Positions 49,035-59,945 of a stretch of 64,000 bases of DNA are shown piece by piece. The notes below the pieces were generated by a model that saw nothing but the letters and a program-made list of their open reading frames with translations, searched no databases and was not told where the DNA came from. This DNA comes from Escherichia phage phiP4. The DNA lies in sequence record PP993145.1. The stretch is one strand, 5' to 3'. The first letter of the stretch is position 1. Each line of letters starts with the position of its first letter. Both the position numbers and the translations under genes were made by a program.

Positions 49035-49431
49035 GTTCTTCTCTCCGACGTTTACTTTCTTTCATCATATGAGCTGCTACAACTTCATGGTAGTAGTCAT
49101 TAATGTTACCTTCTGGCAAGAAATGCTTAATAGTCTCTAACTGACAAATAACTCGATGAAGATGGTTATTTGGTAGACACAATTTTATACCTGCAACAAA
49201 TCCTGAGAAGCCTGGAATACTGAACATGGGTTTGGCTTCTACTCTACCTTCAGAGTTGATGTTAAGCTCAATTGAAATACCCATTTTCATGCTATAAAGC
49301 TGGCAATATTCTCCATTACCAGACCTTGACCAAACAGTGAAGTCCTCATCAATTTGATCTTGGATTTCTGTAATTGCAAATTTAATTCTAGGGTCTAAAT
49401 TATTCATCTTCACCTTCAAAGTCGCAATCAT
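48988..49431 (-). CDS. hypothetical protein, 147 aa
   Basis: ORF. Confidence 0.35.
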   Translation of the reverse strand: MIATLKVKMNNLDPRIKFAITEIQDQIDEDFTVWSRSGNGEYCQLYSMKMGISIELNINSEGRVEAKPMFSIPGFSGFVAGIKLCLPNNHLHRVICQLETIKHFLPEGNINDYYHEVVAAHMMKESKRRREEREKTKHQQHSADPSN

Positions 49432-49786
49432 AACGACAAGTAAAAGAATCAGAACTATTAGTACGTTGAGTGGTTATTTCACCGCGTTTGCTAATAGTAA
49501 CGGCTGGAGTAGAGAAGTTTTTATTAGTATATATTTCTACTTTACCATTACGTTCCTTAACATCACGAACTTTACCATACTCGGTAATAATGCCGTTCTG
49601 TTGGACTTTAACATTACCATTTTTCATAGAAACTTTGGTAGACGCCAGAGAACCGAAACTAACTGCGGAGATCATCAGTGCAATAATAAACTTATTCATC
49701 TTCATCCTCCCCACTACAATCACGACATACATCATAATCGTTGAAAGAACGTTCGTGGGCTTCACACCACCAAGAACAAGAATCAC
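49400..49786 (-). CDS. secreted protein with signal peptide, 128 aa
   Basis: Signal-peptide-like MKMNKFIIALMISAVSFGSLAS downstream of N-terminal extension. Confidence 0.35.
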   Translation of the reverse strand: MILVLGGVKPTNVLSTIMMYVVIVVGRMKMNKFIIALMISAVSFGSLASTKVSMKNGNVKVQQNGIITEYGKVRDVKERNGKVEIYTNKNFSTPAVTISKRGEITTQRTNSSDSFTCRYDCDFEGEDE

Positions 49787-49973
49787 AGAGAAACATTTCG
49801 GTTTTCTCCAGTGCTTGACCTAAAAGATCATCAGCTTCCTCAGCAGTAATCTTCAATCCGCACACATCTGCCACACGTTCTTTAATTAAACGACCTGCTT
49901 CGTGGTAAGACATACAGGTTCCCGCAACATCATGTTCAAGAACATGAACAGCACAGTCTAGACGAGTTTTCAT
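49692..49973 (-). CDS. Cys-rich acidic protein, 93 aa
   Basis: CDSCSWWC...CRDC cluster; behind promoter 50004-50032. Confidence 0.4.
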   Translation of the reverse strand: MKTRLDCAVHVLEHDVAGTCMSYHEAGRLIKERVADVCGLKITAEEADDLLGQALEKTEMFLCDSCSWWCEAHERSFNDYDVCRDCSGEDEDE

Positions 49974-50049: not shown

Positions 50050-50397
50050 TTAGTCATAGCACCACCATAACCCACGTTTACGCATGTCATGATCGCGATT
50101 ATAATCATAATTTTCTGGATCTTTCATCACGCGGTGGAGTTCTTGACGATTCCCTTGACGAACCATTTTATTAGAATGCCACTTAACATTCTTACTAATA
50201 GAATTCCAGTTATAACCATCCTTTTTCTCATTACGAATGGTTGCTTCCTTCATTTCTTTTTTGATGTCGTCCCAGGATTTGGCATAAATAACACGAATCC
50301 AGTAGCCATTTTCTTTGAGGAAAGAATATTCTTGAGAGAATTGTTCTTTAGACTTCCACCACTGATCACCAGATTGTCTACGATAAGTACGGCTCAT
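50050..50397 (-). CDS. hypothetical basic protein, 115 aa
   Basis: ORF. Confidence 0.4.
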   Translation of the reverse strand: MSRTYRRQSGDQWWKSKEQFSQEYSFLKENGYWIRVIYAKSWDDIKKEMKEATIRNEKKDGYNWNSISKNVKWHSNKMVRQGNRQELHRVMKDPENYDYNRDHDMRKRGLWWCYD

Positions 50398-50462
50398 ATT
50401 ACCTCCATTAAGTCTTTTAAATTAACCTAATGTGGATGAATTTTATTATACATATATTATGT

Positions 50463-50499
50463 ACCTTTATACAGAAAAACCCCAGACTACTTATTCAAT
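50463..50499 (-). terminator. intrinsic terminator (aaccccag/ctggggtt hairpin)
   Basis: Hairpin plus U-run. Confidence 0.5.
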
Positions 50500-50518
50500 A
50501 GCTGGGGTTTGTTATTAA

Positions 50519-50824
50519 TTACAGATCGGGGCGTTCATCTTCGAACGCTACGAAGCCATCAAATTCATCATTTGAAATACCACCAGTATAGGTGATGTCC
50601 GCAATCATCGCTTCCATTTTCCTGATCTCCGAGGTTTTCATACCTGCTTTACTATTCTTATAATATTTGCGAGGGTTCCCACACATCCAACAAGAACAGA
50701 TGCAAGGAGTAGTAGTGATAATACCTAACCGCTTAGGGCTTTCTTCATGTGGAAAGACTGTCCAATACTTCTTACGGTTGTTCTTCACACGTTGCCGGTG
50801 ATGGCGTCTTAATGCTCGATCCAC
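50519..50824 (-). CDS. hypothetical protein with CxC cluster, 101 aa
   Basis: ORF. Confidence 0.4.
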   Translation of the reverse strand: MDRALRRHHRQRVKNNRKKYWTVFPHEESPKRLGIITTTPCICSCWMCGNPRKYYKNSKAGMKTSEIRKMEAMIADITYTGGISNDEFDGFVAFEDERPDL

Positions 50825-50905
50825 ACATTTCTCCTAAAACTTGGGAGATAAACGGAGTTTGCTCGACTACCTTGCGTAGCTGGGAGAAATCGTATCCAAA
50901 CCCCA

Positions 50906-51274
50906 TTACATCGCCTGAGTAAATGTACGACTAATAACGTCGTTCTGTTGTTCACGAGTCAGTGCATTAAATCGAACAGCGTAGCCAGAGACACGGATGG
51001 TCAACTGAGGATATTTTTCAGGATGTTTCTGCGCATCCAAAAGCTGATCACGGCTTAACACATTGACATTTAGGTGCTGACCACCTTCGATTTGAGGGAC
51101 GACTTCCACCTTAACTTCACGGAAGGATTCAGGATCGAATTGCGGTGTGATACCTTCTAGATCTTCAACTAGAACTTTCTGTTTAAGTTCACCGTTGTCG
51201 GAGTATAGCTGAATAATCTGATTTTCATGAACAAGGTTAATTACGCCAGATTTAAGATTTTGATATGCTTTCAT
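50906..51274 (-). CDS. grcA: autonomous glycyl radical cofactor (GrcA/YfiD-like), 122 aa
   Basis: C-terminal [11 protein letters not shown]...[20 protein letters not shown] closely matches GrcA glycyl-radical domain. Confidence 0.75.
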
Positions 51275-51316
51275 TAGATCTCCCCGATGTTAGAATTTGG
51301 CTCAGCTTTTTATTCT

Positions 51317-51511
51317 TTATACTTTTCCATAGTATACGGAAACTGTCTTACCAGTTTGGTTCATGACATATGCTACTTCATCTTCTTTTAAAAAGATGGC
51401 TTGGTCTACTCCAACTATAGCCAATCTTTTATTTCTAGGATTAAAGCTTACACTTTTGCCTGTATGAATCTGTTCCCCATTCTTGGCTGACATTATTTTA
51501 ATTGTTAACAT
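51317..51511 (-). CDS. hypothetical protein, 64 aa
   Basis: ORF. Confidence 0.35.
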   Translation of the reverse strand: MLTIKIMSAKNGEQIHTGKSVSFNPRNKRLAIVGVDQAIFLKEDEVAYVMNQTGKTVSVYYGKV

Positions 51512-51549
51512 AGCTGCTCCTAAATTTAGCTATCTCTAGCTATTTTAAT

Positions 51550-51625
51550 GGTAGTTAGTAGTGGATTTGAACCACTGTAATCGCTCCGTATGAAGGAGGT
51601 GCATAACCGCTCTGCCAACTAACTA
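51550..51625 (-). tRNA. tRNA-Met/Ile2 (anticodon CAT)
   Basis: Hand fold: acceptor AGTTAGT/ACTAACT, T-arm AGTGG-TTCAAAT-CCACT, loop TTCATAC, CCA encoded. Confidence 0.65.
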
Positions 51626-51720
51626 TTATGTTTTACTAGACTAAGTAAGTATTCTTTATACTCTTTAGTCCAATTAGCTTTTTTAAACTTTCCTGGACGC
51701 ATAGTCTTAATTCCTAAATT

Positions 51721-51797
51721 TGGTACTCCGGGAGGGATTTAAACCCCCGATCTCTCGGTTATCAGCCGAGTGCTTTAGATCGCTAAGCTACCGAAGT
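51721..51797 (-). tRNA. tRNA-Ile (anticodon GAT)
   Basis: Anticodon stem CTCGG/CCGAG loop CTGATAA; CCA encoded. Confidence 0.7.
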
Positions 51798-51798
51798 A

Positions 51799-52026
51799 TT
51801 AACATTTTACAGCAGAACGTTTGCCATTTCTAGGCGCACCTGGAAGTCGTGCACGTTCTGCCATTATTCGCTTAATCTTTGAGATATTTTCTAGTGTTTG
51901 TTTTTCAGGCTTAATACCTGAAACACTACACCACTGACTACCATCCCATGCGGTAATGATCATAACACCATTACTCATGATCTTTTCTGTGAAAGTAATC
52001 CTCATTATAGCAACTCGTCTAAGCAA
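51799..52026 (-). CDS. hypothetical protein, 75 aa
   Basis: ORF between tRNA genes. Confidence 0.3.
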   Translation of the reverse strand: MLRRVAIMRITFTEKIMSNGVMIITAWDGSQWCSVSGIKPEKQTLENISKIKRIMAERARLPGAPRNGKRSAVKC

Positions 52027-52298
52027 GAGGTATATTTAAGTTTACCATCTTTATCTACTTTGATTTCGACTTCCGCTCGTGGTACTTGACGAACTACACC
52101 ATGAATCATCTTATAGCGAATGCCTTTAGCTGGTTCATGCTCTTTTGGAAATACTTGCTTAACCGTTACTACCTTGAAACCCTCACGCGGTGTTAACACT
52201 ACTACTTGATCACCTTTTTTGATCTTCCAAGAGCTAGGAAATTCATAGGTATAGCGTTGACCACCAGTTTGGAACACAACAGAAAGATAACGTTTCAT
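52005..52298 (-). CDS. hypothetical protein, 97 aa
   Basis: ORF behind promoter 52329-52357. Confidence 0.4.
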   Translation of the reverse strand: MKRYLSVVFQTGGQRYTYEFPSSWKIKKGDQVVVLTPREGFKVVTVKQVFPKEHEPAKGIRYKMIHGVVRQVPRAEVEIKVDKDGKLKYTSCLDELL

Positions 52299-52365: not shown

Positions 52366-52560
52366 TTAATAGAGTTTAGTCACTTCATAAACTATACTAC
52401 GAGATTCTTTATTACGTTCTATTAAATTAGCGTATGCTTTTTCAGCTTCGTTTTTAGTATTAAAGTCTATAACGTGGGAGGTATTAGCTCTGTTTGATTG
52501 ACTATACCAGATAACTACTAGGAGTTTAAACATACTAGTCCTTAAATTGGTGCTGGGCAC
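52366..52560 (-). CDS. hypothetical protein, 64 aa
   Basis: ORF; 3' end overlaps tRNA by a few nt. Confidence 0.3.
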   Translation of the reverse strand: MPSTNLRTSMFKLLVVIWYSQSNRANTSHVIDFNTKNEAEKAYANLIERNKESRSIVYEVTKLY

Positions 52561-52634
52561 AGGATTCGAACCTGCAGTGGGATTACTCCTCCTGATTACA
52601 AATCAGGTGCATTCAACCATTCTGCCAACCCAGC
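52548..52634 (-). tRNA. tRNA-Thr-like (anticodon TGT), 87 nt with 15-nt variable arm
   Basis: Acceptor GCTGGGT/GCCCAGC, A73, stem CCTGA/TCAGG loop TTTGTAA, GGA-GTAA-TCC hairpin in variable region. Confidence 0.5.
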
Positions 52635-54380: not shown

Positions 54381-54470
54381 TGGCAGAAGATAATGGAGTC
54401 GAACCATCACCGTATCGCTACAGCGGGCTGGTTTTCAAGACCAGTTACGTACCACTACGTCCTATCTTCT
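54381..54470 (-). tRNA. tRNA-Ser (anticodon TGA), class II
   Basis: 90 nt, stem CTGGT/ACCAG loop CTTGAAA, long variable arm. Confidence 0.7.
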
Positions 54471-55135: not shown

Positions 55136-55214
55136 TGGTGGAGAATAACGGAATCGAACCGTTCTGATGTCCTCGGTGCAAGCGAGGTGTCCACTCCATG
55201 CAGACCCATTCCCC
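55136..55214 (-). tRNA. tRNA-Ala (anticodon TGC) with G3:U70
   Basis: Stem CCTCG/CGAGG loop CTTGCAC; G3-U70 wobble in acceptor. Confidence 0.75.
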
Positions 55215-59867: not shown

Positions 59868-59945
59868 TGGTGGCTCCCCGAGGATTCGAACCTACGTACC
59901 TTCCGGTTATGAGCCGGGTGCTCATACCATATGAGCTTGAGAACC
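59868..59945 (-). tRNA. tRNA-Met (anticodon CAT), initiator-like anticodon arm
   Basis: CCCGG-CTCATAA-CCGGAAGG resembles E. coli tRNA-fMet. Confidence 0.6.

Follow-up and report, generated by a model that had tools for sequence, protein, structure and literature searches.

A GrcA-like autonomous glycyl radical cofactor encoded at the edge of the tRNA cluster of a T5-like Escherichia phage

Only two spare-part proteins have been validated, YfiD (GrcA) from E. coli and Y06I from bacteriophage T4 (PMC8683613, citing Wagner et al. 2001). It has been established in vitro that PFL-AE installs a glycyl radical in these proteins, and that the activated protein then forms a complex with oxygen-cleaved pyruvate formate-lyase (PFL) and restores its activity (PMC8683613), a spare-part role that is likewise assigned to YfiD in a 2026 review (PMC13450708). 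The substrate of PFL-AE is mimicked by the heptapeptide RVSGYAV, which has been crystallised with the enzyme (PDB 3CB8). NMR analysis has revealed that residues 1-60 of YfiD are disordered in solution, yet this region is important both for the binding of cleaved PFL and for the installation of the radical (PMC8683613).

Here we describe a gene of this kind in Escherichia phage phiP4 (PP993145.1), in a stretch of 64,000 nucleotides that we refer to as the window. The original prediction had proposed a phage-encoded GrcA-like glycyl radical cofactor at 50906-51274, and these coordinates delimit exactly an open reading frame, stop codon included, on the minus strand. The features of the locus are the following:

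50906..51274, minus strand: GrcA/YfiD-like autonomous glycyl radical cofactor, complete coding sequence (122 codons plus stop, ATG start)
51095..51274, minus strand: N-terminal half, residues 1-60, from profile comparison and dN/dS
50909..51094, minus strand: C-terminal glycyl radical domain, residues 61-122, from the alignment to PflB 698-759 and to the GrcA C-terminus
50975..50995, minus strand: RVSGYAV motif, residues 94-100, with the predicted radical site Gly97 (codon GGC, 50984-50986)
51280..51285, minus strand: Shine-Dalgarno sequence GGGGAG, 5 nt 5' of the ATG of the GrcA-like gene; a ribosome-binding site is annotated at the equivalent position of phage Lindwurm
51549..51624, minus strand: tRNA-Met(CAU), first gene of the early cluster of 22 tRNAs, upstream of the GrcA-like gene

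Escherichia phage Lindwurm (Demerecviridae, Tequintavirus) shares 99.2% identity with the 4 kb that surround the gene, a region matched by 476 phage records. The gene has its own ATG, Shine-Dalgarno sequence and stop codon, and it is flanked by unrelated small ORFs and tRNA genes; its product is a standalone protein of 122 residues, within the class of about 120-130 residues, and not a piece of a gene for a full-length glycyl radical enzyme. The early tRNA cluster, 22 genes on the same strand at 51.5-63.6 kb, has the GrcA-like gene at its promoter-distal edge, and the gene's own expression is presumably early; this setting differs from that of the T4 gene, which is found in the regB-denV region. 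In T5, the orthologous gene, tRNA-Ile and tRNA-Met all lie between the annotated promoter P11 and a rho-independent terminator. A promoter and terminator scan around the window gene gave no signal above the shuffled background, and no statement specific to T5 on the GrcA-like gene or on its expression timing was found in the literature searched.

Within the tRNA cluster, the gene with a UGU (Thr) anticodon (52548-52634, minus strand) is 84-87 nt long and carries a long, class II-like variable arm; its counterpart at the syntenic position of T5, tRNA-Thr(UGU), measures 75 nt, and in the annotation of Lindwurm the same gene, of 87 nt, is a tRNA-Thr. The tRNA callers disagree at several points of the minus strand between 51500 and 64000. 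The Rfam tRNA at 59871-59945 is absent from the ARAGORN calls, while the tRNA-Ser (54381-54470) and the tRNA-Ala (55136-55214) called by ARAGORN are absent from the Rfam list at the gathering score. Both tRNA-Leu calls are only about 77 nt long in ARAGORN, and one of them is annotated in Lindwurm as 85 nt.

Several small ORFs follow the GrcA-like gene. An ORF of 101 aa directly downstream (50519-50824, minus strand), the orthologue of T5.055, encodes a protein that is strongly basic at its N-terminus and contains the cysteine cluster CICSCWMC. This protein has no counterpart in Pfam and belongs to PHROG 4499, a family without an assigned function; binding of zinc or nucleic acids is a possible role for so small a protein. 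Two further downstream ORFs in overlapping frames (49400-49786 and 49692-49973, both on the minus strand) carry acidic, cysteine-containing tails (…CRYDCDFEGEDE and …CRDCSGEDEDE), and the former also begins with a stretch that resembles a signal peptide (MKMNKFIIALMISAVSFGSLAS). The two fall into PHROGs 4821 and 2855, likewise without an assigned function.

The assignment to the GrcA family is correct, as domain, family and structure matches and the alignment agree. The 122-aa protein matches the Gly_radical domain of Pfam (PF01228, E=4e-18) and the full length of PHROG 1209 (E=1.2e-47, residues 1-122 on profile positions 1-121 of 121), and its best NCBIfam model is that of GrcA, TIGR04365 (E=3e-35, 121.1 bits). 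Among structures, it matches E. coli GrcA/YfiD (PDB 6owr, E=1.6e-30, residues 45-121) and PflB (PDB 1h16, E=6e-27), residues 61-122 aligning without gaps to PflB 698-759. TIGR04365 is a curated NCBI equivalog model with a cutoff of 170 bits, which the window protein misses at 121.1 bits. On this same model, E. coli-type GrcA scores 233 bits, the RB32 orthologue of T4 vs.6 153 bits, and the jumbo-phage and Vibrio-phage copies 135-137 bits. Because the RB32, jumbo-phage and Vibrio-phage copies also fall below the cutoff, the latter marks off bacterial copies from those of phages; it does not sort functional copies from non-functional ones and says nothing on function.

The likeness to E. coli GrcA/YfiD (6owr; TIGR04365 / IPR011140) comprises the size class and the architecture, a variable N-terminal half followed by a C-terminal radical domain that mimics PflB 698-759, as well as an identical string of 10 residues and the conserved linker REV..VE..P. 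Unlike GrcA, the phage protein reaches only about 56% overall identity, 121 against 233 bits on TIGR04365, and no detectable homology in its N-terminal 30 residues; being virus-encoded, it also stands outside the host regulation of grcA.

Identity with a full-length PFL or TdcE was rejected. Only residues 61-122 align to the corresponding model, on positions 683-744 of 744, and the score of 85.5 bits contrasts with a cutoff of 994. Unlike PflB and TdcE, the phage protein corresponds to no more than the last 62 of 760 residues, without the ten-stranded barrel and without the catalytic Cys418/Cys419; for these reasons, the names 'pyruvate formate-lyase' and '2-ketobutyrate formate-lyase' are misnomers. 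Both nonetheless occur in GenBank for this same 122-aa gene, as do 'putative formate-lyase', 'ribonucleotide reductase subunit' and 'hypothetical protein', and Lindwurm_ID115, which is 100% identical to the window protein, is called 'putative acetyltransferase-related protein'. Many records thus mislabel the gene, whose proper annotation is autonomous glycyl radical cofactor (GrcA-like). The record of the T5-like phage slur09 does so with 'grcA: Autonomous glycyl radical cofactor'. The T5 orthologue is T5.056, 'identified by match to InterPro domain IPR001150', and that of T5 st0 is T5p055, described as a 'pyruvate formate-lyase related protein' with a glycine radical motif (PF01228) and as an acid-induced glycyl radical enzyme (COG3445). 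The T5 copy has been annotated for about twenty years, with a glycine-radical or PFL-related label in both T5 records, and the exact protein of the window is already in GenBank. Since GrcA-type spare parts of phages have been known since 2001 and the T5 copy was already annotated, the GrcA-like gene of the T5-like phages is an ordinary one, of an already known kind.

The C-terminal half had been predicted to resemble GrcA closely and to include the RVSGY site, and the alignments bear this out. RVSGY occupies residues 94-98 (RVSGYAVRF, 94-102), with Gly97 as the radical glycine, equivalent to Gly734 of PflB. Out of the 62 C-terminal residues, 49 are identical to E. coli PflB 698-759 (79%) and 48 to E. 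coli GrcA (77%), in a GrcA sequence that agrees over residues 48-126 with the 6owr alignment. Loss of the glycine and a likeness confined to the short motif had been named beforehand as tests of the assignment; Gly97 is kept, and the similarity extends over 62 residues, far beyond chance. In addition, an alignment of 39 phage and bacterial GrcA homologues contains 40 invariant columns, and all 40 are present in the window protein. At the DNA level, every one of the 5426 E. coli genomes searched has a pflB whose 3' end shares 77-78% identity with the domain, and tdcE is a third E. coli locus matched, at 75% identity. The identity to pflB points to an enterobacterial origin of the C-terminal half. 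Q77, Q82 and S115 are common to other phage copies and absent from bacterial GrcA and PflB, which suggests a long residence of the T5-like radical domain in phages. In an AlphaFold model of the protein (mean pLDDT 76), the C-terminal half best matches the NMR structure of YfiD and PFL.

The N-terminal half is less straightforward. Profile comparison with hhalign was restricted to the N-terminal halves of three sets, T5-like, other phage and bacterial GrcA. The halves of other phages and of bacterial GrcA are clearly homologous (E=2e-15), and those of T5-like and other phages match at E=2e-6 over residues 32-61 only, while the direct comparison of T5-like with bacterial halves is weak (E=0.003, probability 11%). 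The homology of residues 32-61 to bacterial GrcA would thus be supported transitively, through the other phage copies, and that of residues 1-31 appears unsupported: no homology to bacterial GrcA was detectable for the first ~30 residues in the N-half profile comparison. Apart from the initial MKAYQ, residues 1-31 are divergent, and from about residue 6 to 31 they form a lineage-specific stretch in the T5-like copies. AlphaFold predicts the N-terminal half of the window protein confidently as beta-rich (pLDDT 80-88). A folded N-terminal domain was considered as a phage-specific trait and rejected, as the control with an E. coli-type GrcA gave the same beta-rich result (pLDDT 83-89), although NMR finds this half of YfiD disordered. 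The prediction does not distinguish the two proteins, since both are modelled with a beta-rich N-terminal half and the same elements in the C-terminal half.

Homologues of the protein are widespread. In tblastn searches, they were found in 1584 phage records; 436 of these, at 80% identity or more, constitute the T5-like group, and about a thousand lie near 52% identity, chiefly in T4-like phages, the remainder including jumbo, Vibrio, Aeromonas and Providencia phages. T4 vs.6 itself (NP_049730), which we take to be Y06I, bears the RefSeq product name 'autonomous glycyl radical cofactor GrcA' and is 52% identical over its full length. Both are standalone phage proteins of about 120 aa that start with MKAYQ, fall into PHROG 1209 and carry a PFL-type C-terminal radical domain. 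The two differ in how close this domain is to that of the host: in the RB32 orthologue of vs.6, 60 of the 62 C-terminal residues equal those of host GrcA when read by eye, whereas the T5-like domain shares 77-79% with GrcA and PflB. Moreover, residues ~6-31 of the T5-like protein align unconvincingly with vs.6. T4 Y06I has been characterised biochemically.

The DNA identity to pflB could also be read in another way, namely that the gene is a non-functional remnant, a 3' fragment captured from host pflB or grcA and drifting in a dispensable region. The tRNA region of T5 tolerates deletions, and a few T5-like records contain split or truncated copies, such as the 67-aa product P0033 and the two-piece match in KKP_3822, all of which would suit a decaying gene. 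Selection was analysed on 31 sequences, namely 30 T5-like loci from IMG/VR and the window copy, among which 29 alleles and 18 proteins are distinct, every protein being 122 aa long. For the 29 alleles, mean dS is 0.37 and dN/dS is 0.069 over the whole gene, with 0.11 in the N-terminal and 0.017 in the C-terminal half. The gene is therefore under strong purifying selection with both halves maintained, including the one that does not derive from pflB, and this constraint on both halves indicates that it is not a decaying pflB fragment. The intact ORF with its ribosome-binding site, the conservation in more than 400 genomes and the retention of the gene in the T5 st0 deletion mutant argue in the same direction. 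The remnant reading was rejected on the dN/dS values, which rule out drift, and we regard it as the least credible of the explanations considered.

As to what the protein does, two roles had been proposed, support of host anaerobic metabolism and support of an anaerobic ribonucleotide reductase. The first, in the form of PFL rescue within host anaerobic pyruvate metabolism, is the best supported because of the homology, at 52% identity, to T4 vs.6, taken as Y06I. We consider it likely that the protein is a GrcA-like spare part that would receive its radical from host PflA and rescue host PflB, and would thereby sustain acetyl-CoA and ATP. The annotation of the Lindwurm genome contains no radical-SAM activase, and a Pfam scan of the ORFs near its NrdD gene detected none. 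When all six frames of this genome were scanned for CX3CX2C, the motif turned up in no more than two ORFs, both small (101 and 91 aa). The first, which is the T5.055-type ORF already mentioned and the only annotated Lindwurm ORF with the motif, was rejected as a phage activase, being far too small for a radical-SAM enzyme and having no Pfam match. As the phage has no activase, the radical must come from one of the host, and PflA is the likeliest because the domain is of the PFL type.

According to the proposed mechanism, hydrogen abstraction at Gly97, within the RVSGYAV loop, would be carried out by the radical-SAM enzyme PflA of the host. Once it bears the radical, the C-terminal domain (~61-122) would insert itself into host PflB that has been cut by oxygen at Gly734, or into unactivated PflB, and the docked domain would restore the conversion of pyruvate and CoA into acetyl-CoA and formate. 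The N-terminal half may aid the binding to damaged PFL and the installation of the radical, as it does in YfiD. Early in infection, T5 degrades the DNA of its host and stops host gene expression, so that neither PflB nor GrcA can be replenished by the cell. The phage copy could in this way keep up the fermentative supply of acetyl-CoA and ATP under micro-oxic, gut-like conditions with fluctuating oxygen, from which the phage would presumably benefit.

The same features of the protein might serve interference with the host enzyme instead of its repair. A decoy or regulator of this sort would titrate PflA away, or sit on PflB, so that host pyruvate and formate metabolism is diverted or slowed, with less formate or acid stress as one conceivable gain; another PFL-type enzyme such as TdcE could be its target instead. 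The DNA match to tdcE fits such a target, and T5-like copies diverge over their first ~30 residues, within a half that in YfiD controls the binding to cleaved PFL (PMC8683613). Against such a function, T4 Y06I restores PFL in vitro and does not inhibit it (PMC8683613). The domain retains its radical glycine and all invariant residues at a dN/dS of 0.017, the pattern expected of a catalytically competent domain, and a protein that only binds would probably tolerate more variation. We hold a decoy or regulatory role to be unlikely. A related and quite improbable scenario is that the T5-like copies have been retargeted towards unactivated intact PflB, TdcE or another activation regime, through Q77, Q82 and S115 and through their first ~30 residues, which diverge from other copies and yet are strongly conserved; the phage would then control the host pyruvate and formate flux after shut-off rather than merely repair it. 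In this scenario, a phage with NrdD, a GrcA-like protein and no activase would rely on PflA and NrdG of the host, and the two enzymes would become host factors for infection at low oxygen.

The second of the proposed roles is not supported. It would make the protein a spare part for the class III NrdD of phage or host, sustaining dNTP synthesis after oxygen cleavage at the glycyl radical. The T5-like phages do encode an NrdD, located in Lindwurm at 50240-52114 (14241-16115 in L003; Pfam NRDD, 5e-172), about 27 kb from the GrcA-like gene and outside the window. In this they are like T4, and T4-like phages that carry a GrcA homologue also encode NrdD (the T4 enzyme bears a glycyl radical, PMC13450708). 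In addition, the same oxygen damage hits all glycyl radical enzymes, and the existence of spare parts beyond PFL is an open question (PMC8683613, PMC13450708). The sequences themselves tell against the idea: BLASTP of the 122-aa protein against Lindwurm NrdD detects no similarity (E=17), and the best local match around the NrdD glycine is 6 of 15. NrdD ends in RRVCGYLG, preceded by a CxxC...CxxC zinc ribbon, while the C-terminal half of the GrcA-like protein has no cysteines and resembles PflB instead, at both the protein (79%) and the DNA (77-78%) level. Besides, NrdD is activated by its own activase, NrdG, and not by PflA. The reading was rejected on the missing similarity and the different C-terminus, and we judge it very improbable. 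As an observation of its own, the T5-like genome that encodes NrdD lacks NrdG, no radical-SAM protein having been found genome-wide in Lindwurm. It follows that both NrdD and the GrcA-like protein would depend on host activases.

The GrcA-like gene is a textbook-style auxiliary metabolic gene, one that reflects the replication of T5-like and T4-like coliphages in a gut where oxygen fluctuates.
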